Source: a virus (Duplodnaviria > Heunggongvirae > Uroviricota > Caudoviricetes). From it: DNA of 20,532 bases. A program made the translations under genes and the position numbers. Location of the stretch: IMG/VR virus record IMGVR_UViG_3300046474_000274, positions 100,425 through 120,956 of that record; one strand, 5' to 3'. The notes beneath the pieces were generated by a model. That model saw only the letters and a program-made list of their open reading frames with translations. It was not told where the DNA came from and made no database searches. This document shows positions 627 through 17,559 of this stretch, in pieces (positions within the stretch are counted from its first letter, which is position 1; the number at the start of each line of letters is the position of its first letter).

Positions 627-644
627 TAAGTAAGGACTTACTTA
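627..644. promoter_or_regulatory. Palindromic operator-like site, copy 1 (perfect)
   Basis: TAAGTAAG-GA-CTTACTTA fills the 22-bp gap between the stop at 624 and the ATG at 647. Confidence 0.8.
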
Positions 645-646
645 GG

Positions 647-1084
647 ATGACCGAACAGACCGCCGAAGTGATCTCTCTCGCAACCCGCAAGCCCTGGCAC
701 GAGGAGCAGGCCGAGAAGCGCAAGGCCCGCCGTTCCGATGGCCAGAGGAAGCGCTTCGAGAAGGACAAGGCCAAGAAGGATCACAAGACGGGCATGCTGA
801 TCATGCTCGACGAGGTGAGGGCGCTGATCGAGGCCGGCAAGTTCGAGGGTCTGATGATCTTCGGCCGCGATCCGAACAGCAAGGCATTCTTCAACGATTT
901 CATCCTCGATGTCGGCACCGTGCCACTCAACGACTATTTCGGCTTCGCCGGTCTGCTCGACACCGTGAGCCTCGAGCTCAAGCAGTGCGCCACGATGGCG
1001 CCGGCGCTCATGAATGACGGGTCGATCGAGGATCCGTATCTCGAGCCGGAATACGTGATGCTGGACCCGGAGGATTTCGAATGA
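647..1084 (+). CDS. Hypothetical protein (~145 aa)
   Basis: ATG at 647 avoids overlap with the upstream gene (track start 614); typical codon usage; ATGA overlap with the next gene; no recognised motif. Confidence 0.7.
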   Translation: MTEQTAEVISLATRKPWHEEQAEKRKARRSDGQRKRFEKDKAKKDHKTGMLIMLDEVRALIEAGKFEGLMIFGRDPNSKAFFNDFILDVGTVPLNDYFGFAGLLDTVSLELKQCATMAPALMNDGSIEDPYLEPEYVMLDPEDFE

Positions 1085-1722
1085 CCCTCTACACCATCAC
1101 CCGCAAGTTCAACACCTCGGTCGATCGCACCCCGCGCGTGCTGGAGATCGCCGAAGCCTTCGGTCTCGGTCTCTCCGACAAGGAATTCGTCGTCTACAAC
1201 GGTCTCCAGATCGAGATTAACCAGGGTGATGTCGTCTACATCACCGGTCAGTCGGGCTCCGGCAAGTCGCTGCTGCTCAAGGATCTGACGGCACAGATGG
1301 GCGAGGGCGGTCTGAAGATCGCCGATCTCAACAAGGTCGAGCTCGAGGAACGCCCTGTGATCGAGCTGGTCGGCAAGACCACGGTCGAGGCAACCGATCT
1401 GCTCGCCAAGGCCGGCATCTCCGACGCCTACATCTACCTGCGCAAGCCCTCGGAGCTCTCCGACGGTCAGCGCTACCGTCTCAAGCTCGCGATCCTCATG
1501 GCGTCCGACGCCGATGTCTGGATCGCCGACGAATTCGGCGCCGTGCTCGATCGCACGACCGCCAAGCTGGTCGCCTTCTCGATGCAGAAGGTCGCCCGGC
1601 GCATGGGCAAGACCTTCATGGTCGCGACCACCCACGCCGACCTCAAGGAAGAGCTCGGCCCCTCTCTCACCATCACGAAGCGCTTCCGCGAAAAGGTGGA
1701 AGTCGAAGGAGCAAACGCATGA
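1081..1722 (+). CDS. Stand-alone ABC-family ATPase with no transmembrane partner
   Basis: Walker A GQSGSGKS, signature LSDGQ, Walker B WIADEF, H-loop VATTH; no permease gene nearby. Confidence 0.9.
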   Translation: MTLYTITRKFNTSVDRTPRVLEIAEAFGLGLSDKEFVVYNGLQIEINQGDVVYITGQSGSGKSLLLKDLTAQMGEGGLKIADLNKVELEERPVIELVGKTTVEATDLLAKAGISDAYIYLRKPSELSDGQRYRLKLAILMASDADVWIADEFGAVLDRTTAKLVAFSMQKVARRMGKTFMVATTHADLKEELGPSLTITKRFREKVEVEGANA

Positions 1723-2030
1723 TGAATTTCGGCGATGCATTGAACCACCTCAAGTTCGACGGCAAGGCCGCGCGCCGCGGCTGGAACGGCAAGAACATGT
1801 TCATCTACCTGGAGAAGGGCTCCGCGCCTGGCAACACGGCCGTCGAGCCGACGAGCTGGGGCATGGATCTGATCTCCGGGGTCGACAAGGACCATTTCGA
1901 AACCGGCCCCGAGGGCACGACCGTCAGGCTGCCTCACATCAACCTGCGCGCTCCCAACGGCACGATCATTACTGGTTGGCTTGCCTCTCAGAATGACATG
2001 CTGGCTGAAGATTGGGTCGAGGTGCTCTGA
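1719..2030 (+). CDS. DUF2829 / Tad2-like protein (candidate anti-defence nucleotide sponge)
   Basis: N-terminal MNFGDALNHLK..GKAARRGWNGKNMFIYL and C-terminal GWLASQNDMLAEDW match the DUF2829 pattern (F..AL..LK.G....R.GWNG...W..SQ.D.LA.DW). Confidence 0.8.
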   Translation: MMNFGDALNHLKFDGKAARRGWNGKNMFIYLEKGSAPGNTAVEPTSWGMDLISGVDKDHFETGPEGTTVRLPHINLRAPNGTIITGWLASQNDMLAEDWVEVL

Positions 2031-2230
2031 TGGCAAAGCTCGTCACCACCGCGGACATCGTGATTCCGGCCGGCACCGAAGTCGGGCCTGGCCCGCTCAA
2101 GTCAGAATATTTCACCCCGCACGGCGAGATCATCATCGGGTTCGACAAGGACACGACCGGCTCGCTGCGCTTCGACCTCGATGAAGCCCAGGCACTCGGC
2201 CTGGTGAAGGAGGTCAGCATCAATGGCTGA
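2030..2230 (+). CDS. Small hypothetical protein (66 aa)
   Basis: TGATG overlap with the upstream stop (ATG 2030-2032) and overlap with the downstream start; no motif recognised. Confidence 0.65.
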   Translation: MAKLVTTADIVIPAGTEVGPGPLKSEYFTPHGEIIIGFDKDTTGSLRFDLDEAQALGLVKEVSING

Positions 2231-2546
2231 TCGCGGCTGGTATGGCGTCGACTTCGACGGAACGCTCGCAACCTATGACACCTGGAAGGGCATCGACCAC
2301 GTCGGGGAACCGATCTGGCCGATGATCAACCGTGTCAAGAGCTGGTTGGCTGCCGGCCGCGAGGTCCGGATCTTCACCGCGCGCTGCGCCGGGCCGGAAG
2401 ACTGCACGCCGGCGATCGAGAAGTTCTGCCTCGAGCACATCGGCCAGGTGCTGCCGATCACCAACATTAAGGACTTCGGTCTGATCGAGCTCTGGGACGA
2501 TCGCGCGGTTCGGGTCGAAGAAAACACGGGCCGCAGGATCCTCTGA
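2223..2546 (+). CDS. Minimal (capless) HAD-superfamily phosphatase
   Basis: Motif I GVDFDGTL, motif II IFTAR, motif III/IV K...LWDD. Confidence 0.85.
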   Translation: MADRGWYGVDFDGTLATYDTWKGIDHVGEPIWPMINRVKSWLAAGREVRIFTARCAGPEDCTPAIEKFCLEHIGQVLPITNIKDFGLIELWDDRAVRVEENTGRRIL

Positions 2547-2548
2547 CC

Positions 2549-2671
2549 ATGATCATGACCATCATTCTTCTCGTGCTGCTCGTGCTCTACCTCGTTCATG
2601 ACGAAGTGAAGTTTAGGCAGCGCTGGGAAGAGCTACACGAGCTCAAGGGCGACGAGGACGATGCTGCCTGA
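2549..2671 (+). CDS. 40-aa single-pass membrane microprotein (not in ORF track)
   Basis: MIMTIILLVLLVLYLVHDEVKFRQRWEELHELKGDEDDAA*; starts 2 nt after the HAD stop and overlaps the next start, exactly filling the gap. Confidence 0.6.
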   Translation: MIMTIILLVLLVLYLVHDEVKFRQRWEELHELKGDEDDAA

Positions 2672-3524
2672 TATCGAGACACTGATCGAGCGAAACGCGA
2701 GCCCTCGAGCTAATTTCGCGCTCACGGATCACATGTATGTGGAACGTGGGACCAAGGCTGATTGGGATCTGCTGCACGATCTGCACTACAAGGCGGAAGG
2801 GCTGCCGATCGGACCTCAGTTCTGGAAGCTGACGCTCGACGGGCAGACGATCGGCGTGCTCGTCGTCGGGATGCCGAAGGGTATGCTGAAGGAGCGCCAC
2901 CTGGTCTTCAAGAAGCTGGCGCCGGGCTCCGGCGACACGCGGCTGACCAACACCAACCGCTACATCTACATCAATGCCAATTTCCGCGTGGTCTCGCGCT
3001 TTGTCGTGGACACGATGTTCCGCGGCATCGGCGCCGGCTACCGGATGATGAACCTGGTCGCCCGGATGGACGGTCACAGGTTTATCGAAATCCAGTCGTC
3101 CATGTCGAAGTTCAACGCCTTCGGTCAGAAGGCAGGCTTCAACTTCGTCAAGCCGATGAACGCCAACAAGTTCGACGCCGGCATGAAGTTCTTCCGCGGC
3201 AATTTCGAGTCCACGCCGCAGGACTTCGAGGCCGTCGTCAACGAGCTGGAGAATTCGCCGAGGTTCGAGCAGCTCCTCGCCGCCTGCAAGGAATTCTACC
3301 AGAAGAACTCGGCCCAGGAGAATACCGGGTCCGCCCGTGACAAGGCTGACTCGCGCGTGGCTGCCATGACGCCGCGGGACGTGATCAAGGGTATCCAGCA
3401 GATGGCGCTCGCCTCGCCGATGTATGGCATCTACCAGAACCCCGACCTCGGCCGCGCCCTGCCGGAGAAGCTGCCGCTCACTGCCTTCGATCGCCAGAAG
3501 GTCAACGAAAGGCTCGTGCTGTGA
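2661..3524 (+). CDS. GNAT-fold acyltransferase-like protein
   Basis: Acyl-CoA binding motif A: SRFVVDTMFRGIGAGYRMM (~3021-3038), followed by FIEIQSSMSKFNAFGQKAGF, which resembles the GNAT beta5 strand and terminal GF motif. Confidence 0.75.
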   Translation: MLPDIETLIERNASPRANFALTDHMYVERGTKADWDLLHDLHYKAEGLPIGPQFWKLTLDGQTIGVLVVGMPKGMLKERHLVFKKLAPGSGDTRLTNTNRYIYINANFRVVSRFVVDTMFRGIGAGYRMMNLVARMDGHRFIEIQSSMSKFNAFGQKAGFNFVKPMNANKFDAGMKFFRGNFESTPQDFEAVVNELENSPRFEQLLAACKEFYQKNSAQENTGSARDKADSRVAAMTPRDVIKGIQQMALASPMYGIYQNPDLGRALPEKLPLTAFDRQKVNERLVL

Positions 3525-3769
3525 AGCCGCGTCGCACCGAGAAGCAGAAGGAGATCATGGGTCTTATTCTGAAGGCGGCCGGCGAGGGCAGGTTCCTCAC
3601 CACGACCGACATCCATGAGCTCGTCTCCTACGAGGCAAGCTATGGCGCGATCCGGATCTCTATTCGCTTCCTTGTCTCCCAGGGAATGCTGGAACGCCGC
3701 CCGGACGGTCAATTCACTCGTCTTGTTCCCACCTTGAGAGGATACGACTGGTTCCGCCCGACGACGTGA
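3521..3769 (+). CDS. Winged helix-turn-helix DNA-binding protein (82 aa)
   Basis: GTG start overlapping the upstream stop; helix-LTTTDIHELV-turn-SYGAIRISIRFLVSQGMLERR-wing(DGQFTRLVPT..G) pattern typical of wHTH. Confidence 0.7.
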   Translation: MKPRRTEKQKEIMGLILKAAGEGRFLTTTDIHELVSYEASYGAIRISIRFLVSQGMLERRPDGQFTRLVPTLRGYDWFRPTT

Positions 3770-3808
3770 ATTCCCATCCGTCTATCGTAATAGTTATATA
3801 TATGATAA

Positions 3809-3826
3809 TAAGTAATTACTTACTTA
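3809..3826. promoter_or_regulatory. Palindromic operator-like site, copy 2 (1 mismatch), inside an AT-rich island upstream of terS
   Basis: TAAGTAAT-TA-CTTACTTA; 3809-3822 is itself a perfect 14-bp palindrome TAAGTAATTACTTA; 3786-3835 has only 8 G+C in 50 bp. Confidence 0.75.
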
Positions 3827-3914
3827 TATATATCTTACCATGAGAGGACGGGAATGAAGATCCTCCGGTGATGAGATTCAAGGTCCGCGGCATTGAGAAA
3901 ATTTGGAAGAAAGC

Positions 3915-4577
3915 ATGTCTGAAGAAGTCGAAGCGAAGGAAGAAGTCAAGGAAGGCGCCGGCTCCACGGGTAAGCGCCTGTCTGATGCTGAATTCGCCGA
4001 AGCTAAGGAACTCTACGAACTCGGCAAGGCTGGCCTGTCTGAGCTCGCGGATCAGTTCGGCGTCACCAGGCAGGCTCTCTCGGCGCGTCTGAAGAACGCT
4101 GGCGCGGTTAAGGGCTCTCGGGCACACGAAGCTGCGGCTGCAACGAAGAAGGCTGCCACGGGCTCTCCCTCGGCTGCCGCGGCCGGCGCCATCGAGCGGT
4201 TCGTCGACAAGCGCGGCGAGTGGATCGAAGAAACCCGCATCACCGGTGTCCGTCAGCTCAAGCTCGCACGCCAGCTCGCCCAGAAGGCTATCCAGGACGC
4301 CATCTCGGCCGGCCGCTCGATCGCGACCGCGGATGAAGACCTGAAGGCTGTCCAGCGCTTCAACAAGATCCTCGTCGATAACCTGGAGTCCGCCCTCAAC
4401 CTGCTCGAAGCCGACAAGCACGTCGATGAAAACGACCTGCCGACGCTCAGCATCGAAGACCTGACCAACGAAGACATCCTCAAGCACCACGTCGGCACCG
4501 GCGCGCTGCCGGAGGATACGACCGTCGAGGATATGCTGGCCGGCGAGGCCGATCCGGAGATCGAGCTCGATGTCTAA
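3915..4577 (+). CDS. terS: Probable terminase small subunit (N-terminal HTH)
   Basis: HTH LSELADQFGVTRQALSARLKN, helical middle, acidic tail; overlaps the terL start; ATG 3915 preceded by GGAAG. Confidence 0.7.
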   Translation: MSEEVEAKEEVKEGAGSTGKRLSDAEFAEAKELYELGKAGLSELADQFGVTRQALSARLKNAGAVKGSRAHEAAAATKKAATGSPSAAAAGAIERFVDKRGEWIEETRITGVRQLKLARQLAQKAIQDAISAGRSIATADEDLKAVQRFNKILVDNLESALNLLEADKHVDENDLPTLSIEDLTNEDILKHHVGTGALPEDTTVEDMLAGEADPEIELDV

Positions 4578-5841: not shown

Positions 5842-5843
5842 GC

Positions 5844-5872
5844 TTGCAAGTAAGTAAGTCCTTACTTACAAT
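5844..5872 (+). promoter_or_regulatory. sigma70-like promoter for the portal operon with operator copy 3 (5851-5868, perfect) in its spacer
   Basis: TTGCAA (5844-5849) - 17 bp - TACAAT (5867-5872); TAAGTAAG-TC-CTTACTTA; AGGA RBS at 5889-5892. Confidence 0.8.
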
Positions 5873-5898
5873 GCGCGTTCATTGACGCAGGAACAATT

Positions 5899-7530
5899 AT
5901 GGCCGGAACCACGGAACATAAAGACGCGCTGAGGAACTTCTACGATCGCCGGCACCCCGGCTATCAGGAGTCGATCTCGCATTGGCACTTTCTCGACATG
6001 GCCTATCGAGGCGGCCGTGACTGGTTCCGCGACAACATTTTCCGCTACTACAAGGAAGGTGACCACGAATTCGAAAAGCGCCTGCAGCGCGCCTATCGCT
6101 TCAATCACACCAAGGAAGTCGTCGAGCTCGTCCAGAAGTATCTCTTCAAGGGCGAAATCACCCGCAATACGTCGGACGCGCACGATGTCGTCACCAGCTT
6201 TTGGAAGAAGGCGACCAAGGGCGGTGTGTCCGTCGATCAGCTCATGCGCCTGGTCTCCGTCGGTAACTCGACGGGCGGCCGCGTGGCGCTTGTGGTCGAC
6301 AACAACTTCCAGGCCGAGGTCGAGGTCTCCGAAGGCGTGACGCGCCCGGTCTCGATCGCCGAGGCCAAGGCTCAGAATTTCCGCATCTACGCATACACCG
6401 TGCCGGTCAAGGACATCCTCGATTTCGCCTTCGACGAAGATGGTGACGGCGAGCTCCTGTGGGTGAAGCTGCGCGAGATCGCCCGTGACGATCGGGATCC
6501 CTTCTATTCGACCGGCGACCTCATCGAGCGCGTGCGCCTGTGGACCCGCGACGGCTGGGAGCTCTACCAGGAGGTCGAGACCGGCGAGACCACGGTCATC
6601 AACGGCATTCGCACGCCGGTCAAGCAGGTCGAGATGATCGACTTCGGCTATCACAAGCTCGGCTTCGTGCCGGTCTATTTCGCCGATCACACGATCAATG
6701 AGGACAGCTACCGCGTCACGTCCCTGATCGACGATATCGCCTATCTCGATCGCGCCGTCGCCAACTATCTGTCGAACCTGGACGCTATCATTCAGGACCA
6801 GACGTTCTCCCAGCTCGCGATCCCGTCTCAGGCGATCCAGTCGGGCGACGACATGTTCAACAAGGTGCTCGAAATGGGCACCAAGCGCATCTTCGTCTAC
6901 GACGCTGGCGCCGGCTCGTCTGCGCGCCCGGAATATCTGTCGCCCGATCCCAAGCAGGCAGGCGTCATTCTGGCGGTGATCAACAAGATCATCAACGAAA
7001 TCTACAACACCGTCGGTCTCGCCGGCGAGCGCACGAAGGAAGACAATGCCGTCGGCATCGACAATTCCTCGGGTGTCGCCAAGGCATACGACTTCGAGCG
7101 GGTAAATTCGCTGCTTCTGGCGAAGGCTCAGTCCTGCCAGAACGCCGAAAACTGGTTGGTCAAGACCGTGCTTGCCTGGGCAGGCGAGGCGGCTCCGACC
7201 GACGACCTGGTCACCTATCCGACCACCTTCGACATCATGGGCCTGAACGACGAGCTGGTAACCGCCGAGGCACTGGCGAAGCTCCAGGGGCCGATCGAAG
7301 TGCGCCGCGAGCAGATGAAGTCGGTTGTCGACAAGATCTTCCCGCAGCTCAAGAAGGAGCTTCGCAAGACGCTCCACGCCGATATCGACAAGTGGCTCGA
7401 GGGCACTGACCTCCTGCCGCTGCCCACTTCCATCGGTGGCGCCAAGCCCGCTGCCGCCCCCAACCGTCAGGGCGAGGTCACCCGCACCACGTCCGCAAAG
7501 CCGAACACGACCAAGGCTGCAGCCAAGTAA
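5899..7530 (+). CDS. Portal protein (543 aa)
   Basis: Directly after terL; size and mixed helical/beta pattern typical of portals; disordered Pro/Ala/Lys-rich tail. Confidence 0.85.
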   Translation: MAGTTEHKDALRNFYDRRHPGYQESISHWHFLDMAYRGGRDWFRDNIFRYYKEGDHEFEKRLQRAYRFNHTKEVVELVQKYLFKGEITRNTSDAHDVVTSFWKKATKGGVSVDQLMRLVSVGNSTGGRVALVVDNNFQAEVEVSEGVTRPVSIAEAKAQNFRIYAYTVPVKDILDFAFDEDGDGELLWVKLREIARDDRDPFYSTGDLIERVRLWTRDGWELYQEVETGETTVINGIRTPVKQVEMIDFGYHKLGFVPVYFADHTINEDSYRVTSLIDDIAYLDRAVANYLSNLDAIIQDQTFSQLAIPSQAIQSGDDMFNKVLEMGTKRIFVYDAGAGSSARPEYLSPDPKQAGVILAVINKIINEIYNTVGLAGERTKEDNAVGIDNSSGVAKAYDFERVNSLLLAKAQSCQNAENWLVKTVLAWAGEAAPTDDLVTYPTTFDIMGLNDELVTAEALAKLQGPIEVRREQMKSVVDKIFPQLKKELRKTLHADIDKWLEGTDLLPLPTSIGGAKPAAAPNRQGEVTRTTSAKPNTTKAAAK

Positions 7531-8574: not shown

Positions 8575-8597
8575 GCCAATTTTCAACTTATAGCGAA

Positions 8598-8621
8598 AAA
8601 AGTAAGCGCTAGCTTACTTTT
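8598..8621. repeat. Inverted repeat with operator half-sites but a 6-bp core spacer (variant copy 4); may also act as a weak terminator
   Basis: AAAAGTAAGC-GCTA-GCTTACTTTT, 23 bp after the scaffold stop. Confidence 0.6.
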
Positions 8622-8624: not shown

Positions 8625-8671
8625 TTGCGCAGAAGCCCGCCGTTGGACTATTGTAAGTAAGTGCTTACATA
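8625..8671 (+). promoter_or_regulatory. Putative promoter for the major capsid gene with operator copy 5 (8654-8671, 1 mismatch) over the start site
   Basis: TTGCGC (8625-8630) - 18 bp - TATTGT (8649-8654); TAAGTAAG-TG-CTTACATA; the same TATTGT+operator junction occurs at 15853. Confidence 0.65.
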
Positions 8672-8714: not shown

Positions 8715-9614
8715 ATGCCGCTTCTGATGACCGAAGCCGCAAAGCTGGCTGAAGACGATCGCCAGCGCGGCATTATCGAGGAACTCCTCGACAAGGACGA
8801 ATTTTTCGCCCTCGTGCCCTTCGTTCGGGCCAAGGACGACACGTTCAGCTACACCCGCGAGCTTGCTCTGCCGGGCGCCGGCTGGATCGACCCCTACGAT
8901 GATATCGAAGAGTCGACTGGTCAGGTCGAGAACATCAGCACCAAGATCAAGATCCTGGCTGGTCAGTTCGATATCGCCAACTTCATCTCCGAAGTTAAGT
9001 CCGACATGTATGATCAGATCGCCGTCCAGGCGAAGTTCAAGATCAAGGCGGTCGGCCGCGACTTCAAGAACGTCCTCATCAACGGCGACGCCGCTGTCAA
9101 CGCCAAGCAGTTCGACGGCCTGCGCAAGCTGGTCGATGTCGATCGCACGCTGACGGCTGGTGCCAATGGCGCGGCTCTTGCCTACTCCGCTCTCGACGAG
9201 CTGAAGGATGCCGTTCCGCTCGGTTGCGACTTCCTGATGATGCGCTCCGAAACCTGGCGCGTTATTCGCGAACTCAACCGTCTGCACGGTGGTAACACCG
9301 CTGAAATGATGATGGTCGAGAACTTCGGTGCTCCGATGCGCTTCTACGACGGCACGCCGGTCATCATCAACGACTACATTTCGAAGACCGAAACTCAGGG
9401 CTCCAGCTCTGCGACGACTTCGATCTACGCAGTCCGTGCAAACGAAGTCGACGGCTTCCATGGCCTCTGGGCCGGCGATGCCGCTGGTGTCCGCCTGGAA
9501 GAAATCGGCACCAACTTCAACAAGGACTCCAAGCGCTGGCGCGTCAAGTGGTATACCGGTGCGGCTCTCCGCGCTACCCACGCCGTTGCTCGCCTGAAGG
9601 GCGTCCTCGTTTAA
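8715..9614 (+). CDS. Major capsid protein (HK97-fold expected, 299 aa)
   Basis: AAGGAG RBS at 8700-8705; MPLLMTEAAKL...; FINGD....KQFDGL and ..W....AL......ARL.G patterns of capsid proteins; strong codon bias; flanked by a promoter and a terminator. Confidence 0.92.
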   Translation: MPLLMTEAAKLAEDDRQRGIIEELLDKDEFFALVPFVRAKDDTFSYTRELALPGAGWIDPYDDIEESTGQVENISTKIKILAGQFDIANFISEVKSDMYDQIAVQAKFKIKAVGRDFKNVLINGDAAVNAKQFDGLRKLVDVDRTLTAGANGAALAYSALDELKDAVPLGCDFLMMRSETWRVIRELNRLHGGNTAEMMMVENFGAPMRFYDGTPVIINDYISKTETQGSSSATTSIYAVRANEVDGFHGLWAGDAAGVRLEEIGTNFNKDSKRWRVKWYTGAALRATHAVARLKGVLV

Positions 9615-9616: not shown

Positions 9617-9645
9617 TTGAAAGTAAGTAAGAACTTACTTATGAT
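9617..9645 (+). promoter_or_regulatory. sigma70-like promoter with operator copy 6 (9624-9641, perfect) in its spacer
   Basis: TTGAAA (9617-9622) - 17 bp - TATGAT (9640-9645); TAAGTAAG-AA-CTTACTTA; same geometry as 5844-5872. Confidence 0.8.
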
Positions 9646-9671
9646 GGGCGGGATCAATTCCCGCCCATTTT
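9644..9671 (+). terminator. Intrinsic terminator after the major capsid gene
   Basis: ATGGGCGGGA-TCAAT-TCCCGCCCAT, a perfect 10-bp stem followed by a short T run. Confidence 0.75.
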
Positions 9672-9688: not shown

Positions 9689-10255
9689 ATGCCGCGCATC
9701 AAGCTCACGAAGCCCAGCTTCGCCAATCTGACCGGGCAGCTTCCCGGCAAGAAGTTCCGGGGTGTGAATTTCACCAGCGGCATTTCCGACGACATTCCGC
9801 TCGCAGTGGTCGATAAGATCGCGGCCCAGCTCGCAGGCTCTCGCCTGGTCGACGGCGCCGGTGCCGATCTGGGTCCGGCCGGTTCTCTCTATCGCAAGAC
9901 GACGATTATCCCGACGCCGCCCATTCCGCGCACCGAGTCCGTCATCGCCGAAGGCTCCGACGCCACGCGCGTTCGGACGATCAGCACTTCGACCTATACG
10001 CTTGTCGCTACCGATGTTGGCATGATCCTCGACTTCACGGTCGGCACCGTCGTCACCGTTCCGGCATCGCTCCCGGCTGCCTTCAACTGTGCGCTTCGCC
10101 AGGGTGGTGCCAATCAGATCCAGGTGGTCGCTGGGGCCGGCGCGATCGTTGAGGAAATCGACGGCAAGTTCAAGTCCGAGAAGCGCCTTGCACTGCTGAC
10201 GCTTGCACGCTTCCCGGACGGCAAGTTCCAGCTCATCGGAAGGACTTCGGCCTAA
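9689..10255 (+). CDS. Two-domain putative virion accessory/adaptor protein (188 aa)
   Basis: GGAG RBS at 9679-9682; N-terminal ~65 aa paralogous to the N-terminus of 11863-12498; Pro-rich linker; C-terminal TYTLVATDVG...VTVP..LP..F....Q.G..Q beta module seen in phage fibre-associated proteins. Confidence 0.75.
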   Translation: MPRIKLTKPSFANLTGQLPGKKFRGVNFTSGISDDIPLAVVDKIAAQLAGSRLVDGAGADLGPAGSLYRKTTIIPTPPIPRTESVIAEGSDATRVRTISTSTYTLVATDVGMILDFTVGTVVTVPASLPAAFNCALRQGGANQIQVVAGAGAIVEEIDGKFKSEKRLALLTLARFPDGKFQLIGRTSA

Positions 10256-11850
10256 TGGCGTCGTTCCTGTCCTCAATTGTCGGCCTCATGGCAGGCGTAG
10301 CCGCGGCATCTCTTGTCGCCGCGCCGGTCGATGTTGATCCCGATCGCTACATGTTCTTTGCGACCCGCAACCGCGTGCCGACTGGCACGCTGGTCACGGC
10401 CGCGGCCGGCCACAACTACGTCGTCTCGAAGATCGTGGTCAACACGCCTGAATACCCGGTCAACCATCTGCGCATCCACTTCTCGAACTTTCTACTGACC
10501 GAAGGCGGGAACTCGCCGCGCGAGCAGGCGACGGGTGCAATCCAGACCAATGCCAAGATCATCGATAAGGTGTTCGCCTACGCCAATGGCGAAATGGTGC
10601 AGGTCAAGTTCGGCGGCGCGCCTGGCCTGACTATCGCTACCGCGGCAAGGGGCGGTTGGTCGGACGAAATCGTTTTCACCAATAAGGTGACTTCCGAGAC
10701 CAAGGTCACCTTCTTCACTATCTATCACACGGCCGTTGGCGAGAAGCAGATCCCCGTCTATCGGATCCAGAAGCATCGCGGCGAACGCGTATGGTCGGGC
10801 GCCGATCTTGCGACCGTCGAGGCGTATATCAGCAATCCTGACGCTGACTCGGTTGGCCCTCTCGATGTGAGCTACGCCTCGCAGGCTCAGCCGCAGGTCT
10901 ATGGCCCCGACTTCATGGTTGCTAAGGGCTGGGATGGCCGTCCGGTCGCCTGCTGCTTCGTGGACTCGATCGGTGAAGCTCGCCAGGAATTCAGCGCGGC
11001 CGCCGACGATCGCGGCAATCTCGGCTGGCTTCGCCGCTGGCTCGACAAGAAGGCCGGCATCGGTCGCATCCCGCACATGATGATGGCTGGGCCTGGCGCT
11101 CACGCCGAATACGAAATGACCGGGACCGGGTCGACCATCGCAACGATGCGCTGGGATATTGTCGATGAAGTGAAGGCGATGAATGGTGGCACCAAGCTTC
11201 CCTTCACCGTGTTCGTCAATCAGATGGGTCAGAACGACACCGGCACGACCATCGCTCAGTGGTGGACGCGCATTTTTAATCCGCGCACCCGCTCGAACAC
11301 TCGCTACCCCGGCATTCGTCACGTCTATGTTCCCCCGCTGGGTCGCACCACGACCAATAACAATTGGAGGGATGCTACCGGCCAGTCCTTTTCGTCGAAT
11401 AATGTTTGGCCCGCTAACGAAGCCGATCCGGCGACTGGCAAGTGGGTAATGAGGGCTCGTATCCTTGCGCTCTTCGGCAGCATCGCCGATGCCGCAGTCG
11501 ACACCTATAGCGCCTGGGTCTCGCCCAGCGCCGATGGCAAGTGGCCTGGCTACCTCGAGCTGCCGTTTTCGACGCTCACCCAGCCGCTGAACGCCACGAA
11601 CTCGATCACGGTTGCGGATGGATCGATCTACCAGCCCGAGCAGGTGATCCTGGTCGGCGCCACCAACAAGATCATCTCCCAGGTCGACGGCAACGTCATC
11701 ACCTTCACTTCGGCTACGGCCGAGGTGCAGCCGGTTGGCACGCCGATTTATCAGATCCCCTCGGTCGACGGCGTTCACCCCTATCCGGTCATGGTTAGGC
11801 GCATCGTCGCCGGCATCCCGCAGTCCGAAAAGCAGAAGCTCGTAGCATAA
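10255..11850 (+). CDS. SGNH/GDSL-hydrolase (esterase) domain protein, 531 aa
   Basis: Block I FVDSIG (Ser238), block II AGPG, block III QMGQND (Asn327), block V DGVHP (Asp505/His508); TAATG coupling to the upstream gene. Confidence 0.8.
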   Translation: MASFLSSIVGLMAGVAAASLVAAPVDVDPDRYMFFATRNRVPTGTLVTAAAGHNYVVSKIVVNTPEYPVNHLRIHFSNFLLTEGGNSPREQATGAIQTNAKIIDKVFAYANGEMVQVKFGGAPGLTIATAARGGWSDEIVFTNKVTSETKVTFFTIYHTAVGEKQIPVYRIQKHRGERVWSGADLATVEAYISNPDADSVGPLDVSYASQAQPQVYGPDFMVAKGWDGRPVACCFVDSIGEARQEFSAAADDRGNLGWLRRWLDKKAGIGRIPHMMMAGPGAHAEYEMTGTGSTIATMRWDIVDEVKAMNGGTKLPFTVFVNQMGQNDTGTTIAQWWTRIFNPRTRSNTRYPGIRHVYVPPLGRTTTNNNWRDATGQSFSSNNVWPANEADPATGKWVMRARILALFGSIADAAVDTYSAWVSPSADGKWPGYLELPFSTLTQPLNATNSITVADGSIYQPEQVILVGATNKIISQVDGNVITFTSATAEVQPVGTPIYQIPSVDGVHPYPVMVRRIVAGIPQSEKQKLVA

Positions 11851-11862
11851 GGAACCTCTAAT

Positions 11863-12498
11863 ATGGAAATGAAGAAGCTCAAGGTCGCGACGGCGCGCAT
11901 GGCCGGCTATACCGGCGTTCTCGGCCCCGTCCGCTTTACCGACGGCGTGTCGGATGAGTATCTGCCGCGTCACATCCGCGACCGTATGGCCGCTTCGATG
12001 GAATTCCTCGAAGTCGACGCCGAAGGCAACGAAGCGCCGGCCGGCGCCCAGCATCGCCTGATTAGCGAAAGCGCTGAGCGTGCGCCGAAGCTCGAGCCGC
12101 TCACGCGCCAGACGCACGCCGAAAAGGCTGCCGAAATCGCCGCTGCAGCCGTGCTTGCCGCGAAGGTGCCGGTTCTGGAAACCCGCGCAAGTCTGGAAGA
12201 GATCGCCTCGAAGCGTGGCATCAAGGGTCTGCGCGAAATCGGCAAGAAGTGGGGCGTCAAGCACCGCTCGATCCCGACGCTGATCGAGATGATCCTCGAC
12301 GCCCAGGAAAAGTCTGTCGCCGCCCGCGATAAGAAGCTCGGTATCACCGCGGCCGAACCTGTCGTCGAACCCATCGCCGCTGATGCGACCGAAATCAAGG
12401 CAGATGAGCCGGTCGTCGGCGCCGTCGAGAATGCGGCAATCACCGGCGACCTTTCGGCTGCCATCAACCAGGCATCTTCGGAGCTGCCGAAGGAGTAA
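11863..12498 (+). CDS. Head-associated protein with a helix-extension-helix (HeH/Rho-N-like) motif
   Basis: GIKGLREIGKKWGVKHRSIPTLIEMILDAQ helical motif; position after the capsid gene typical of packaging/decoration helpers. Confidence 0.65.
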   Translation: MEMKKLKVATARMAGYTGVLGPVRFTDGVSDEYLPRHIRDRMAASMEFLEVDAEGNEAPAGAQHRLISESAERAPKLEPLTRQTHAEKAAEIAAAAVLAAKVPVLETRASLEEIASKRGIKGLREIGKKWGVKHRSIPTLIEMILDAQEKSVAARDKKLGITAAEPVVEPIAADATEIKADEPVVGAVENAAITGDLSAAINQASSELPKE

Positions 12499-12501
12499 GC
12501 C

Positions 12502-13341: not shown

Positions 13342-14087
13342 TTCCTCATCGCCTCACCGAGGCTGCCGACCAGGCAGCGGTTCGCTACGACCATCTCGCC
13401 CAGACCTTCAGCGCTCTCCACACGACGGCGCTGATGTCGGCCGAGTTTGGCTATGCGAACCAGTCGAGCAAGCTTTTTGCCGAAGCATACGACGCTGCCG
13501 GTCTCTATTTCGAACGCGACAAGGAGAGCATGGGCGACCATATGTTCTCAATCGCTGAAAACGCTCACCAGCGCGTTTCTGAAAAGCTGACGACTATCGA
13601 GTCGTCTGGCCTGTCGGACGCAGCCCTGGAGCATCTGAGCGAGACCCAGACGTATCTCTCAAACGAGATCGCTGCTCAGGTGCATCGCGACATCGCACAG
13701 ATGCGCTTTTCGCTTCAGCGGGCGGTTCTGGGCGTCTCCCTCATCGAGCGCAGCCGGCGCATCCCGACCAGGCAGGCGCAGATGGCTTACGTCATGAAGG
13801 ATCGCCAGGAGCTCCAGCTTCAATTCGTCGATCGCCGCGGGCGCCGCACGCCCACCAGGACGTTCATCCGCTCGGTTTATCGCCATGCGCTGTTGTCGAT
13901 CCACAACGAGGTCACGCTGCACGCGCTGGCCGATCACGGCGTCGAGCACGCAGCGGTCATGAAGCTCGAGGATGGCGTCGAAAAGCAGATCGACCGGATC
14001 TCGATCCAGGACTACGCCGCGGTGCGCGACAGTCTGTTCCATCCCAATTCGAATTCCTTCCTGGATGTGGAGATCGACGATGTTTGA
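13338..14087 (+). CDS. Putative minor head protein
   Basis: TTG start overlapping the upstream stop; helical; FVDRRGRR.....FIRSVYR resembles the D..GR.W..Y motif of minor capsid proteins; start uncertain. Confidence 0.5.
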   Translation: MIPHRLTEAADQAAVRYDHLAQTFSALHTTALMSAEFGYANQSSKLFAEAYDAAGLYFERDKESMGDHMFSIAENAHQRVSEKLTTIESSGLSDAALEHLSETQTYLSNEIAAQVHRDIAQMRFSLQRAVLGVSLIERSRRIPTRQAQMAYVMKDRQELQLQFVDRRGRRTPTRTFIRSVYRHALLSIHNEVTLHALADHGVEHAAVMKLEDGVEKQIDRISIQDYAAVRDSLFHPNSNSFLDVEIDDV

Positions 14088-14427
14088 GCCCAACGTGCTA
14101 GGCAAGATCTCGCGCGTCATTGGTCGCGACGTTCACGCCCGGCCGACCTTTTCCGAGCCCGCGGACTGCCCGTTCGGCATCGTCAATCTGAATATTGGCG
14201 CGGCGAAGACCGTCGTTCGCGCCGACTCGTCCGCCTCTCGCGGCTCTGCCGATGAGGAGATGGCCGAGCGCGCCAAGATCCTGATCGCCCCTTACGTCAC
14301 GGTCGCGATCGGCGACCGCTTTGAATTCGACGGCATGACCTTCGTCATCGCCTCGAGGCACGTCCGGCGCTCCGTCATGGGCCAGGTCGATCACTTCGAG
14401 TGCGATCTGGAATTGGTGCCGGCATGA
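14080..14427 (+). CDS. Head closure/stopper (head-tail joining) protein, 115 aa
   Basis: Beta-rich; GRD..ARP.F N-terminus, IGDRFEFDG..F.I and H.ECDL C-terminus; expected position; GGAG RBS before ATG 14080. Confidence 0.7.
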   Translation: MFEPNVLGKISRVIGRDVHARPTFSEPADCPFGIVNLNIGAAKTVVRADSSASRGSADEEMAERAKILIAPYVTVAIGDRFEFDGMTFVIASRHVRRSVMGQVDHFECDLELVPA

Positions 14428-14921
14428 AGCCCAGGATGAAGCTCACCGGTCTGACGGCCGTTCGCACCGAGCTGCGCACGATTGCCGAGAAGGTGCCGGA
14501 CACGGCTCGCAAGACCATGCACCGTTCTGCGGCGAACATCGTCGAGACGGCAAGGGCATGGGCGCCGGAAGACGAAGGCAACCTGGTGCGCGGCATCCAG
14601 ATCATCAAGGACTATGCCGGCATGAACGGCCGCCTTCAGATCGATATCGGGATCGAGATGCCGCCTGACGCATTCTCGGCCTCGGGCACGCCGCTGACCT
14701 CGGACCAGTTCGACATCTACGCGACCCTGGTCCACGAGAACTACGAATACGTCATGCGCGTCAACGGCCCCGGCCCGAAGACGCTGGCGAAGATGGCAAC
14801 CAATCCGAACAAGGTCGGCTCAGGCTTTCTGTCACGCGCGGCACGCGACGAGGAACCCAAGCTGGAACAGAAAACGATCGAGGCCATCACCAAGATCATC
14901 AATGAGGTATCGACCAAGTGA
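14424..14921 (+). CDS. HK97 gp10-like neck/tail completion protein
   Basis: A..I...A...AP.D.GNL..GI, YA..VHE and GFL.RA motifs; ATGA overlap with the upstream gene. Confidence 0.85.
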   Translation: MKPRMKLTGLTAVRTELRTIAEKVPDTARKTMHRSAANIVETARAWAPEDEGNLVRGIQIIKDYAGMNGRLQIDIGIEMPPDAFSASGTPLTSDQFDIYATLVHENYEYVMRVNGPGPKTLAKMATNPNKVGSGFLSRAARDEEPKLEQKTIEAITKIINEVSTK

Positions 14922-15334
14922 TCTACGATATTCTGGAAAAGAAGCTCATCGACTCGGGCCTGGTCGTCGCCGGCGTTTCATTGTTTCGGGGCTTCATGCC
15001 GGCCGAGTGCCTGGTTGGCGTCATGACCCGCACTCCGCTCACCGGTATCAACATCGATCCCTTCATCGAAGGCTGGCATAAGACGGAACTGCAGGTCATC
15101 TGCCGGCACAAGGATCCTGTCGACGGTGCGAAGTTTGCCGCTGACGTTTGCAAGGCGCTGATCGTCGAGAGCCTGGAGACCTATCCGGCTTCGGAAGAGC
15201 GCGGCCCGGCCCACGTCAATCTATTTTATCCGATCACGCTGCCGATCCAGTATCCGCGCCTCGAAGGCCACGGCCTGGAATTCTCGCAGCACTTCAAGGC
15301 GGCGTTCGGCTTTAAGCCGGACTGGAAGGCTTAG
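14918..15334 (+). CDS. Tail terminator protein
   Basis: GTG start overlapping the upstream stop; LF.G.MP, LQVICR and FS..F pattern; position directly before the tail tube operon. Confidence 0.75.
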   Translation: MIYDILEKKLIDSGLVVAGVSLFRGFMPAECLVGVMTRTPLTGINIDPFIEGWHKTELQVICRHKDPVDGAKFAADVCKALIVESLETYPASEERGPAHVNLFYPITLPIQYPRLEGHGLEFSQHFKAAFGFKPDWKA

Positions 15335-15338
15335 CCCG

Positions 15339-15695
15339 TCAGGATTTGCTGATGCTTTCGAGCGTCATCTTGTAGATGTTGTCGAGGGTCTCGAGGCGGG
15401 CGGAACTGTCGGCGGCGCATTCGCTGCCGCTTCGGTGTTTCTCCGTCTTGTAATATTCGATCAGGTCTTGGGTAGCCTTGCCGACATCTACATTGGTGCT
15501 GGCGAGCGCCGTTAGGAAGTCAGCGTCATATTTGCTGTCGAACTGCAGGCGACAGTTCTCAGACATGATCCTCATCCTCGATATGACATTGAGCATGACG
15601 AAATAGGTCGCGTCATCAACGTCCTTGGCCTGCGCTGCCGGGGTAAGCGAGCTGAAGATGAGTAGTGCGGCCGCGGCCGCCTTGAGTATGCGCAT
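15339..15695 (-). CDS. Secreted/periplasmic small protein (moron-like gene)
   Basis: Only credible minus-strand gene; Sec-type signal MRILKAAAAALLIFSSLTPAAQA followed by KDVDD; two Cys; occupies a region with no + strand gene; converges on the tail terminator gene with a 4-bp gap. Confidence 0.8.
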   Translation of the reverse strand: MRILKAAAAALLIFSSLTPAAQAKDVDDATYFVMLNVISRMRIMSENCRLQFDSKYDADFLTALASTNVDVGKATQDLIEYYKTEKHRSGSECAADSSARLETLDNIYKMTLESISKS

Positions 15696-15801
15696 TGGTG
15701 TGGCTCCGAATGGTTTTGCAACCTCTCTAGCAACGCCTGCAAAGGTTGTCGAGCGGCCTGGTTGAGGGATGATTTCTCACCCTTATCCGAGGCCAGACGC
15801 A

Positions 15802-15819
15802 TAAGTATGCGATTACTGA
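15802..15819. promoter_or_regulatory. Degenerate operator copy 7
   Basis: TAAGTATG-CG-ATTACTGA (3 mismatches to consensus) in the divergent intergenic region. Confidence 0.45.
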
Positions 15820-15828
15820 CTTTTTCCG

Positions 15829-15875
15829 TTGTCAAGTCCTCCCGTTTTGCGGTATTGTAAGTAAGTGCTTACTTA
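15829..15875 (+). promoter_or_regulatory. Putative promoter for the tail tube operon with operator copy 8 (15858-15875, perfect)
   Basis: TTGTCA (15829-15834) - 18 bp - TATTGT (15853-15858); TAAGTAAG-TG-CTTACTTA; AAGGAG RBS at 15907-15912. Confidence 0.75.
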
Positions 15876-15920
15876 TCTTCGTCCGCAATGGGCGAAGCTG
15901 TCGCTGAAGGAGAATGCGCA

Positions 15921-16751
15921 ATGGCCTCGTCCACCGAGAACGTAAAGCTCGGCGTTTGCAACGTTCTCTTCGACGGGATCGACCTTGGCTTCACCAAGGG
16001 CGGCGTCGAAGTGGAAGTTGCCACGTCTACGAAGGAAATTACTGTCGACCAGTTCGGTGAAACCCCGATCGGCGAAATCATCATGGGCCGCACGGTCTCG
16101 GCGAAGGTGCCGCTGGCCGAGACGACGCTCGATAACCTCGTCGCCATCATGCCGGGCTCCGAACTCATTTCCGATGGCGCCAAGGCCGTCGGCACTGTTA
16201 CGTTCGCCACCGCAGCTCCGGTCAACACCGACAGCATCTCGATCGCTGGCGCGGTCTTTACGTTCAAGACGACCCCGGTCGGCCCGAACGACATGGCAAT
16301 CCCGGCCTCGATCGGCGCTGCCGCCTCTGCGCTCGCAGCCAAGATCAACGCCAATGCCATCCCCTACGTTGCCTCTGCACTGGCCGGCGTCGTCACGGTG
16401 ACCGCGAAGAACCGCGGTGTTTCCGGCAATGGCGTGATCACCAAGACGGTCGCAACTCCGGCTAACGTCACCGTTGTCAACCTGGCAGGCGGCGTCGATG
16501 CCACCAAGGCTCAGGTCAAGGTCTCCAACGGCGTCAACACCAACCTGCTCGCACTCGCCAAGACGCTCGTGCTTCGCCCGAAGGGCACGGCCGGTGAAGA
16601 CGACTTCACCATCCACCGCGCGATGTGCCCCGGCGCCCTGAACTTCGCCTACCAGTTCGACAACGAGCGCGTCTTCTCGGCCGCCTTCAAGGGCTACGCC
16701 CTCGACGATGGCCAGCTCTTCGCGCTCGGCGACGTGACTGCGACCGGCTAA
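15921..16751 (+). CDS. Major tail (tube) protein with an internal inserted domain, 276 aa
   Basis: NVKLG.C.V.F.G.DLG.TKGGVEV.V.T....ITVDQFG tube N-terminus and AY..DNERVF...FKGY C-terminus; followed by a terminator. Confidence 0.9.
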   Translation: MASSTENVKLGVCNVLFDGIDLGFTKGGVEVEVATSTKEITVDQFGETPIGEIIMGRTVSAKVPLAETTLDNLVAIMPGSELISDGAKAVGTVTFATAAPVNTDSISIAGAVFTFKTTPVGPNDMAIPASIGAAASALAAKINANAIPYVASALAGVVTVTAKNRGVSGNGVITKTVATPANVTVVNLAGGVDATKAQVKVSNGVNTNLLALAKTLVLRPKGTAGEDDFTIHRAMCPGALNFAYQFDNERVFSAAFKGYALDDGQLFALGDVTATG

Positions 16752-16776
16752 GCGGCTCACCGCTTCTGATCATCAC

Positions 16777-16811
16777 GGCCGGCGCCTCTCACCAGGGACG
16801 CCGGTCTTTTT
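16777..16811 (+). terminator. Intrinsic terminator after the tail tube gene
   Basis: GGCCGGCGCCTCT-CACC-AGGGACGCCGGTC stem (1 mismatch, 2 G-U) followed by TTTTT; a smaller hairpin AAGCGG-CTCA-CCGCTT lies at 16750-16765. Confidence 0.7.
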
Positions 16812-16835
16812 CCTCCTGACACAAGAGAGACTGAA

Positions 16836-17192
16836 ATGACCAAGGTCATCAACATCGCTTCCCTTCGCAAGCCTGCCGCTGTCGTCATCGAGACGGAAGA
16901 TGGGAAGAAGCACGACATGGTCCCGGCGACCGTCGGCACCTTTATCGAGAACCTCAAGGAAATCGAGGAACTCGGCCTGGACGCTTCCCCGATCAAGGAA
17001 GCCGAAATGACCCTTCGCGCTATTCAGCGCGCGTTCCCGACGCTTGAGCGCTCCGAGATCGACAAGTGGACGCTCGACGTTATCCAGAGCCTCTACGAGA
17101 TGATCCTGACGGTCAACGGTGAGGTCGCTTCGAAGGATCCGGCCGTGATCGAGGAGGTCAAGAAGACGGGAAAGTCCGCGGCGGCGGAGTAA
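16836..17192 (+). CDS. Tail assembly chaperone (lambda gpG analogue)
   Basis: 118 aa between tube and tape measure genes; slippery heptamer near the 3' end. Confidence 0.85.
   Translation: MTKVINIASLRKPAAVVIETEDGKKHDMVPATVGTFIENLKEIEELGLDASPIKEAEMTLRAIQRAFPTLERSEIDKWTLDVIQSLYEMILTVNGEVASKDPAVIEEVKKTGKSAAAE
17168..17174 (+). other. Programmed -1 ribosomal frameshift site G-GGA-AAG
   Basis: X XXY YYZ heptamer in correct phase (ACG GGA AAG), identical to the lambda G/T slippery sequence; the -1 frame is open to 17539. Confidence 0.9.
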
Positions 17193-17539
17193 GCCAGATC
17201 GACCTTGGCTTCCTGATCTGCAGGGTCATGGCCGAGTATGGTTTCTCCGTCGATCAAGTCCTGGAGCTAACGGTCAAGCGGTTCTGGTTTATCTCGAACA
17301 TGATTGACCGCATCCGGGCAGAGAAGGATCTGAGGCAGATCCAGTTGATGGCGTCAGTGGGTTCGAAGGAGGCATACGAAGCCGCCTTCAAGTCACTCAA
17401 CTCTCAGGCCGGTGAGGTCTTTGTGCTCGAAAAGGAAATCCCGACGGAGATCCGGATCGACCCGAAGACCGGATTGGACCCTGAATTCGATCGTGAGGGT
17501 CTGCGGGCACTGAAGATGAAGATCGCTGCTGGCCGCTGA
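17174..17539 (+). CDS. gpT-like C-terminal extension of the tail chaperone (gpGT fusion ~234 aa)
   Basis: The -1 frame reads VRGGGVSQIDLGFLICRVMAEYGFSVDQVLELTVKRFW... without a stop from the slippery site; the track ORF 17228-17539 is its 3' part. Confidence 0.85.
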   Translation, partial: VRGGGVSQIDLGFLICRVMAEYGFSVDQVLELTVKRFWFISNMIDRIRAEKDLRQIQLMASVGSKEAYEAAFKSLNSQAGEVFVLEKEIPTEIRIDPKTGLDPEFDREGLRALKMKIAAGR

Positions 17540-17541
17540 CC

Positions 17542-17559
17542 TAAGTAAGTCCTTACTTA
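17542..17559. promoter_or_regulatory. Palindromic operator-like site, copy 9 (perfect)
   Basis: CC-TAAGTAAG-TC-CTTACTTA-GG (symmetry extends over 17540-17561); abuts the AGGA RBS of the tape measure gene. Confidence 0.8.

Follow-up and report, generated by a model that had tools for sequence, protein, structure and literature searches.

A dispersed 18-bp palindrome as the candidate operator of an XRE-family regulator in a phage of apparent phage-plasmid lineage

The final part of the tailed-phage genome IMGVR_UViG_3300046474_000274 carries the same 18-bp palindrome at one gene junction after another, and the question raised by this locus is what the palindrome is for and which protein reads it. 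The window analysed here is a stretch of 20,532 nucleotides, bases 100425-120956 (the final 20.5 kb) of the 120,956-bp virus record; positions are those of the window unless they are marked G000, which denotes the whole 121-kb genome. An earlier note, made from the letters of the window alone, had described the palindromes as operators through which one repressor holds off several sigma70 promoters of morphogenesis genes. The observation of a nine-site palindrome network is confirmed by our analysis, and the interpretation placed on it is partly supported. The reading we favour, at a probability of roughly 0.65, is that a regulator encoded on the element uses TAAGTAA(G)-NN-(C)TTACTTA as its operator, the binder being most likely a helix-turn-helix (HTH) protein of the XRE family with 130 amino acids (aa), encoded at G000 24146-24538.

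Occurrence, anatomy and promoter registers of the palindrome

Scanning the window with the pattern TAAGTAAGNNCTTACTTA and allowing at most three mismatches returned nine palindromes where none was expected, and no match was obtained in any of 100 dinucleotide-preserving shuffles used as control. The copies at 627, 5851, 9624, 15858 and 17542 are perfect, those at 3809 and 8654 have one mismatch and those at 8599 and 15802 have three, in agreement with the earlier note; the variant that it described as having a 6-bp spacer is the copy at 8599, best read as AAAGTAAG-CGCTAG-CTTACTTT with 8-bp arms. Its description of the sites as intergenic and A+T-rich was likewise borne out, since all nine are in intergenic DNA or precisely on a gene junction and are about 75% A+T within a genome of 60% G+C. 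The further statement that the centre varies freely did not survive the genome-wide count, in which a pyrimidine-purine (YR) step occupies the centre of 23 of 33 sites (CA 12, TG 8, TA 3). Departures from the consensus fall mostly on the innermost pair, G8/C11, and the near-invariant core is therefore TAAGTAA-N4-TTACTTA. Complementarity is broken by 23 of the 24 departures at genome sites and kept by one, which indicates selection on the sequence and not on base-pairing. The degeneracy has a polarity as well: when the inner G/C pair is left aside, 38 departures in four genomes fall on the half-site lying downstream with respect to transcription and 12 on the upstream half.

The scan of the entire replicon and of related phages that the earlier note had proposed extends the network far beyond the window. 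With at most two mismatches allowed, 33 sites, 13 of them perfect, are present in the 121-kb genome, and counts of 33, 37 and 37 were obtained in two IMG/VR relatives (G001 and G002) and in Rhizobium phage V1VFA-S, giving 33-37 sites in each of these four same-motif genomes. The idea of a network specific to morphogenesis has to be abandoned, as the sites span the whole genome and include about a dozen phage-specific promoters that are not of the sigma70 type. Calls of the longest open reading frames (ORFs) cover 91% of the genome and leave 26 of the 33 sites outside (P ~3e-21); for at least four of the seven other sites the ORF call appears over-extended at its 5' end, because the site comes before the nearest in-frame start codon. 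Host DNA is nearly empty of the palindrome, with 1-2 sites per genome in two rhizobial genomes of ~5 Mb and 6 sites in total, at most one mismatch being allowed, in 61 genomes of one rhizobial genus (~0.02 sites per Mb). The density in rhizobial chromosomes is roughly four orders of magnitude below that of the element, and the equal frequency in coding regions or host DNA that the earlier note had named as telling against an operator is thus not observed. Perfect sites are enriched on the virion/packaging arc, where they make up 9 of 12, compared to 4 of 21 elsewhere (P = 0.003).

The sites of the window, with the promoters and genes beside them, are listed here.

627-644, no strand: junction palindrome, perfect, between the stop codon of a ParB-N-like gene (622-624) and an ORF starting from ATG 647
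3809-3826, no strand: one-mismatch palindrome upstream of a terS-like DNA-binding gene at 3903-4577 (PHROG 867)
5844-5872, plus strand: portal promoter TTGCAA-17-TACAAT, the palindrome at 5851-5868 forming the 17-bp spacer and the first two bases of the -10 element
5899-7530, plus strand: portal gene, driven by the promoter at 5844-5872
8599-8620, no strand: auxiliary capsid site with the 6-bp spacer, ~53 bp upstream of the main capsid operator
8625-8671, plus strand: capsid promoter TTGCGC-18-TATTGT with its -10 element at 8649-8654, abutted and overlapped by the one-mismatch palindrome at 8654-8671
8715-9614, plus strand: major capsid gene, downstream of the 8654 palindrome
9617-9645, plus strand: post-capsid promoter TTGAAA-17-TATGAT, with the perfect palindrome 9624-9641 in its spacer
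9689-10255 and 10255-11850, plus strand: gene for a 188-aa virion protein, then an SGNH-like esterase gene, both behind the promoter at 9617-9645
15802-15819, no strand: degenerate auxiliary tail-tube site with three mismatches, 56 bp upstream of the tail-tube operator
15829-15875, plus strand: tail-tube promoter TTGTCA-18-TATTGT, its -10 element at 15853-15858 overlapped by the perfect palindrome 15858-15875
15888-16751, plus strand: major tail gene with an immunoglobulin (Ig) domain, downstream of the 15858 palindrome
17542-17559, no strand: junction palindrome, perfect, 2 nt past the stop of the ORF at 17228-17539 and 10 nt before the tape-measure ATG at 17570

The neighbouring genes named in the earlier note were largely recovered (ABC-type ATPases, terS-like gene, portal, capsid, SGNH-like esterase, Ig-domain tail protein and tape measure), with the exception of the GNAT domain, which was not found. 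Its assignment of sigma70 promoters to the sites holds for five of the nine, which overlap or abut such promoters (5851, 8654, 9624, 15858 and, more loosely, 3809), and fails at 627 and 17542, where no promoter is recognisable. These two are better read as roadblock-type sites, because the junctions leave no room for a promoter plus leader. A consensus scan of the 20-kb window returned only four sigma70-like promoters, three of which coincide with palindromes (chance ~3e-5).

The palindrome occurs in recurrent registers relative to the promoter. In the spacer register, TTGnnn-N1-palindrome-NNAT, the terminal TA of the palindrome opens the -10 element, as in TTGCAA-g-palindrome-CAAT (5851), in TTGAAA-g-palindrome-TGAT (9624) and in an identical arrangement at G000 2173. 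In the start register on sigma70-like promoters, TTGnnn-18-TATTGT, the palindrome runs from the last base of the -10 element (8654, capsid; 15858, major tail). The capsid and tail-tube promoters each have a second, weaker palindrome ~55 bp upstream (8599 and 15802), and the homologues of the 8599 site in V1VFA-S and G002 are near-canonical palindromes of 2-bp spacer with one and two mismatches, respectively. The centre-to-centre spacing of such paired operators is inconsistent, varying between 46 and 62 bp across sites and clades, and no helical phasing is therefore claimed. Outside the window the start register is found on the phage-specific class of promoters, CTCC-N12-13-GCTATAA-N2-palindrome, followed by the ribosome-binding site (RBS) and ATG. 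Of the roughly two dozen promoters in this class about half include the palindrome, which marks the operator as a module separable from the promoter. In fuller form this private class reads CCGCTCAtcACCTg..CgCTCC-N12-13-GCTATAA and is met with at G000 16-83 kb (e.g. 39837, 44201, 64952, 74065, 80337 and 82733). A protein of the sigma-70 family is encoded at G000 28754-29398, downstream of a perfect palindrome.

Some structures next to the window sites deserve mention in their own right. The 3809 operator lies at the midpoint of an imperfect A+T-rich palindrome of 52 bp (3790-3841) within a low-G+C stretch (3600-4050), and in relatives longer inverted arms (ttcccgtcc...ggacgggaa) surround this operator; the 3790-3841 palindrome may serve in packaging or as a site of origin type. 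A G+C-rich 11-bp hairpin (9643-9669), situated before the RBS and directly behind the -10 element of the post-capsid promoter, could be a terminator of the capsid transcript or a 5'-end stabiliser; a hairpin of other sequence is present at the equivalent position in phage RHph_N1_10. The auxiliary capsid operator is abutted at 8586-8593 by a reverse TTATAGC (minus-strand GCTATAA), which is conserved in all relatives, RHph_N1_10 included, and may be a promoter of the private class in antisense orientation.

Relatives of the element, exchange of the palindrome and a candidate binder

The virus record has a 127-bp terminal repeat and almost all of its genes on a single strand. Its nearest kin are the Rhizobium phages V1VFA-S, B1VFA and RHph_X66, with ~87% identity across the stretch from terminase to capsid, followed by the RHph_N1_10/RHEph10 group at ~70%; Pseudomonas phage nickie and the Salmonella phage-plasmid SSU5 are more remote. 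Close kin have also been deposited as plasmids, namely Rhizobium beringeri pRlX6, Sinorhizobium pLM21S1 and ~117-kb plasmids of Shinella and Methylobacterium. RepC is encoded by the element, homologues of ParA and ParB are annotated in V1VFA-S, and a protein with a ParB N-terminal domain extends into the start of the window. V1VFA-S and B1VFA, which were isolated as plaque formers, were termed possible prophage-plasmids in their genome announcement (PMC12509600), pLM21S1, a relative of RHEph10, is described as a plasmid-like prophage, which mitomycin C failed to induce (PMC5537653), and the Acinetobacter "AB" group of phage-plasmids adjoins RHEph10 and pLM21S1 (PMC7969092). The presence of RepC, ParA and ParB together with the plasmid kin pRlX6 and pLM21S1 (PMC12509600, PMC5537653) upholds the earlier suggestion of a phage-plasmid, and by its gene content the lineage is one of RepC/ParAB phage-plasmids. 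The portal and tape-measure genes of pRlX6 (locus L326, 6042-7673 and 18718-21491) are annotated in pieces, which points either to sequencing frameshifts or to a decaying prophage-plasmid.

All nine window sites are conserved in position in V1VFA-S, G002, pRlX6 and G001, the intergenic flanks and the centre dinucleotide being subject to drift. The genome of RHph_N1_10 holds no copy of this palindrome, none at the junction equivalent to 627 included. In its place an 18-bp palindrome of another sequence, T[AC]A[AG]T[AC]AA-TA-TT..., occurs 26 times, and the copies are situated at the same junctions: terL/portal, both capsid sites, post-capsid, both tail-tube sites and tape measure. The portal promoter of RHph_N1_10 has the same architecture (TTGACG-g-TCAATCAATATTGATT-TACCAT), its capsid promoter has the palindrome of its own in the same register as the 8654 site, and TAAATCAACGTTGATTTA is found at the junction equivalent to 17542. 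In phage nickie neither motif nor any over-represented palindrome was found, and this phage was therefore used as the negative lineage. Concerted change of about 30 dispersed sites is what a single trans-acting change of specificity would predict, and since both clades infect Rhizobium, the switch argues against a host factor. Two further genomes have other repeats, with 23 copies of xAGTCAGTACTGACTx in G003 (109.7 kb, 41% G+C) and about 27 copies of AGTCAGTMATKACTGACT in G005 (115.8 kb); for these two motifs a reversed-pattern control is invalid, as reversal of the tetranucleotide repeat gives a pattern that overlaps the genuine motif in a shifted register.

The sole ORF of the genome at or over the Pfam HTH_3 cut-off is found outside the window at G000 24086-24538 (150 aa), with a probable start at 24146 that yields the 130-aa protein. 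Its gene is divergent from repC and from the gene for a 67-aa ribbon-helix-helix (RHH) protein. The match to PF01381 amounts to 22.6 bits on the protein and 23.5 bits in a six-frame search (cut-off 23), and matches to PHROGs 8, 2967 and 4 describe a transcriptional regulator or repressor. A palindrome with three mismatches lies in the intergenic region shared by the HTH gene and RHH-repC, and two identical copies with two mismatches lie just downstream of the HTH gene. The protein is 72-79% identical in the three other same-motif genomes and 36% identical in RHph_N1_10, where the adjacent RepC is 67% identical; it was not found in nickie. A single-sequence structure model was too poor (predicted local distance difference test, pLDDT, 51) and was replaced by an AlphaFold2 model from an alignment of 18 sequences (pLDDT 82.7), which predicts a five-helix XRE domain followed by three C-terminal helices, the recognition helix NMITMLK corresponding to residues 39-45. 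The nearest solved structures in Foldseek are C.BclI, C.AhdI and C.Esp1396I, then ClgR, DdrO, Stl and lambda cI, which are dimeric operator-binding proteins, and similar weak matches came from a profile search of PDB sequences. An S24 self-cleavage domain was not found in the 150-aa ORF, for which Pfam returned only HTH_3 and HTH_26. The earlier note had all sites under one repressor; one plausible repressor gene does exist in this 130-aa HTH protein, while repression itself, and the contrast with an antiterminated late transcript that the note drew, are what we infer.

The predicted recognition helix differs between lineages, each of which has its own multi-copy palindrome: KNQNMITMLK in the V1VFA-S clade, TQSNMVTMIK in RHph_N1_10/RHEph10, AQPQALSMMK in G005 and KRPNVLSMIK in G003. 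Chromosomal relatives of the system were located from the DNA pattern alone, by searching one genome per prokaryotic species for the exact 18-mer. In two of the few rhizobial genomes with a match, Rhizobium sp. RU33A and G015, the 18-mer lies 15-60 nt upstream of genes of the same HTH family, between two divergent paralogues. The divergent pair around one palindrome is seen at locus L329 (RU33A) 1015-1918 and at locus L331 around 1501, and it looks like a small CI/Cro-like switch. The recognition helix of these chromosomal homologues, HGPEMLEGILRG, is unlike that of the phage, the one of the second RU33A paralogue, KQGAKMMNLITG, being closer. As homologues beside the same 18-mer carry quite different helices, no simple code relates helix to site.

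Other proteins of the element were considered as binders and set aside. The 67-aa RHH protein upstream of repC was rejected since it is absent from G001, and ParB-like proteins are unlikely since they are present in the palindrome-free nickie. A minus-strand ORF of 118 aa (15339-15695), situated inside the tail module and adjoining the doubly operated tail-tube promoter, was rejected as well, being without a family match and absent from G001 and RHph_N1_10; with 37-53% identity in the nearest relatives, it behaves as a variable moron-like insert. Apart from regulation, the element encodes a protein with a Tad2-like (Thoeris anti-defence 2) domain at 1719-2030 of the window (E = 2e-21) and a protein with an Acb2/Tad1 hairpin domain at G000 94316-94948, both of which are candidate anti-defence genes.

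Operator function and competing explanations

From the observed sites with their registers and conservation, from the exchange of sequence throughout a clade and from the joint occurrence with the HTH family, we infer binding, the stoichiometry of a dimer, repression and a link to lysogeny. A dimer of the HTH protein would sit on two 8-bp half-sites whose centres are spaced by one turn of the helix, with a bendable YR step between them. The sites would place it in the promoter spacer, after the -10 element over the transcription start, or at tight junctions, and from such positions the bound protein would occlude RNA polymerase or block read-through. The approximately 35 sites span the operons of virion, packaging, replication, nucleotide-metabolism and sigma-factor genes, so that one protein could silence nearly the whole genome during RepC/ParAB plasmid upkeep. 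As the capsid and tail-tube promoters have a second, weaker site ~55 bp upstream, the protein may bind cooperatively or form loops.

Several observations weigh against this interpretation. The link between the HTH protein and the sites is correlative; the helices of V1VFA-S and RHph_N1_10 differ only modestly (KNQNMITMLK versus TQSNMVTMIK), and the chromosomal homologues next to the very same 18-mer have the quite different helix given above. The HTH_3 score is only at the Pfam cut-off, and the promoter of the HTH gene itself has only the three-mismatch site, ~55 bp upstream of its -10 element. A perfect site on the ParA operon is awkward for a pure plasmid-state repressor, and no promoter is recognisable at 627 and 17542. 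V1VFA-S and B1VFA are plaque-forming isolates, and lysogeny of either is putative. Furthermore, the same 18-mer is the apparent operator of an unrelated TetR subfamily elsewhere, so that the DNA alone cannot name the binder.

The plaques formed by V1VFA-S and B1VFA (PMC12509600) count in favour of a different function, in which the binder is a timing or shut-off factor of the lytic programme that possibly activates some promoters and represses others. The concentration of perfect sites on virion and packaging operons could then reflect graded timing, and the lack of an S24 domain in the HTH candidate and the failure of mitomycin C to induce pLM21S1 (PMC5537653) would fit. However, positions in the promoter spacer and from +1 to +18 are classical for repressors and poor for activators, the promoter spacers are 17-18 bp and not the 19-20 bp of MerR-type activation, relatives exist as plasmids and need silencing, and the HTH gene is located in the repC maintenance region; we regard a lytic timing factor as rather unlikely. 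Somewhat more doubtful still is that another protein of the element uses the sites as a combined centromere and operator, either the ParG-like RHH protein encoded after parA (G000 95743-95991) or the RHH protein of 67 aa whose gene lies upstream of repC. With its two tandem tetranucleotides (TAAG TAAG) the half-site recalls the box arrays of RHH proteins, and the ParG-like protein occurs in each of the four same-motif genomes, in RHph_N1_10 and in G005, but not in nickie. The 67-aa RHH protein, though, is missing from G001 with its 33 sites, and the ParG-like protein was not found in G003 (23 sites), G008 or G015, each of which has a palindrome as well as homologues of the HTH protein. Members of the HTH family were present in all five compared, including two rhizobial chromosomes in which the ParG-like protein was not found, and centromere sites are normally clustered and not spread over ~35 promoters.

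An action of the palindrome at the RNA level, with a 5' hairpin stabilising or marking the transcript, would be conceivable for the copies after the -10 element, which would be transcribed into an 8-bp stem of -5 to -10 kcal/mol. The spacer-type sites (5851, 9624 and G000 2173) lie upstream of the start and would hence go untranscribed, the departures from consensus break pairing instead of compensating for it, the sequence is invariant beyond what mere pairing demands, and it was replaced wholesale in the sister clade, all of which makes an RNA function highly improbable. Equally remote is binding by a host protein, for instance a regulator of the TetR family, an idea which derives from the finding that a conserved TetR-type gene follows within 0-45 nt in at least 35 of the 120 exact matches retrieved from bacterial genomes and that 103 of the 120 have a YR centre. 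No TetR_N match is present in the element, which also removes TetR as a binder of its own; the rhizobial matches examined have no adjacent TetR gene and number at most 1-2 per genome, and RHph_N1_10 from the same host genus has a different palindrome at the same positions.

The TetR subfamily in question is characterised by the motif GFxGTTTKEIA..GVSEAxxFRHF, and the 18-mer that precedes its genes by 0-45 nt, TAAGTAAG-YR-CTTACTTA, is apparently the autoregulatory operator of this widespread subfamily. The TetR-linked 18-mers (among loci L130-L249, e.g. L152, L163, L226, L229 and L246) come from Pyrinomonadaceae/Blastocatellia (Acidobacteria), Firmicutes, Bifidobacterium and others. Several are embedded in a TTGACA-N-palindrome-CAAT promoter like the spacer-type design of the element, and in some the last A of the palindrome supplies the ATG of a leaderless start. 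Sharing of the 18-mer between the element and the TetR subfamily looks like convergence.

If the sites are operators of the HTH protein, the consequences reach beyond this genome. It seems to us an even chance that one small XRE protein is the whole-genome switch of a widespread but almost unstudied family of ~110-120-kb phage-plasmids in Alphaproteobacteria and other lineages, one of 41% G+C, with an operator fitted into three promoter designs, including a class that the sigma factor encoded by the element probably recognises, and with ~30 operators per genome rewritten in concert at each change of specificity. Such a family would constitute a natural series of heteroimmune master-switch variants, of which the V1VFA-S variant would have converged on the operator of a TetR subfamily, and the concerted replacement between sister clades would be a clean case of regulator and regulon changing specificity together. 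Silencing of a complete lytic programme by phage-plasmids is little known beyond P1 and N15. The lineage occurs in rhizobia used as crop inoculants and has kin in Methylobacterium, Shinella and Sinorhizobium. A single operator on ~35 promoters together with a candidate protein offers an experimental handle; immunity groups could be predicted from sequence, and the operator-bearing promoters could serve as a tightly repressible set for rhizobial genetics.

Comparison with known dispersed-operator systems

A full-text literature search for the half-site returned unrelated papers only, and the motif is not mentioned in the genome announcement of B1VFA and V1VFA-S or in the pLM21S1 papers. Among known systems, the C1 system of P1 is comparable in that a phage-plasmid has one repressor with many operators over ~100 kb and many separate operons, with the repressor gene in a maintenance or immunity region and without integrase-based lysogeny. 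Operators dispersed over a phage-plasmid in the manner of P1 are found here too (33-37 sites in four genomes, RepC, ParA/ParB and plasmid kin). In P1, C1 binds as a monomer to operators that are asymmetric 17-mers and does not belong to the XRE HTH_3 proteins, and the late genes are controlled indirectly via Lpa. The element differs from P1 in that its operators are symmetric 18-mers and every virion operon has its own site; the asymmetric 17-bp operator of C1 type was not found, the candidate binder being of the XRE family (homologues of C1 were not searched for elsewhere).

The stoperators bound by gp71 of the cluster A mycobacteriophage L5 are similar in number and placement, some 25-35 short sites being spread over the genome in small gaps between genes, and they include sites inside transcription units that block elongation. 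The two sites at 627 and 17542, on tight junctions with no recognisable promoter, may resemble the latter, whereas most of the other window sites overlap promoters. Stoperators are asymmetric 13-14-mers in one orientation, whereas the sites of the element are symmetric and mostly on core promoters, and hosts and proteins are unrelated; asymmetric one-orientation sites of the cluster A type were not found here, the palindromes having only a mild polarity (12 versus 38 departures). In the IncP-1 plasmid RK2, palindromic operators of KorA and KorB (OA and OB) are likewise found plasmid-wide on or next to most promoters, and KorA sites overlap the -10 element. RK2 employs several cooperating repressors (KorA, KorB, KorC and TrbA), of which KorB belongs to the ParB family, in contrast to the single dominant motif of the element. 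No RHH protein of the ParG kind (TP228-type centromere-operator) travels with the repeat across the genomes compared.

In terms of the protein, the XRE repressors, comprising lambdoid CI/Cro, 434, P22 C2 and the C proteins of restriction-modification systems, share the five-helix fold and dimeric binding to promoter palindromes of 14-18 bp, and they form immunity groups with co-varying operator and recognition helix, as the lineages of the element may do. The element encodes an HTH_3 protein, of borderline score and agreeing fold, and has 18-bp palindromes overlapping promoters. It is unlike lambdoid phages, which have two tripartite operator clusters and express late genes via antitermination, in having ~35 single or paired sites, no S24 domain and no adjacent cro-type partner, a divergent paralogue pair being present only in the chromosomal relatives; a self-cleavage domain of the lambda CI/LexA type was not found in the candidate, whose C-terminal part is predicted to consist of three helices. 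By analogy with these systems, the design is probably a variant of the known dispersed-operator immunity of P1 C1, L5 stoperators and RK2 Kor, and what appears to be new is that symmetric operators of XRE type are built into every virion operon.

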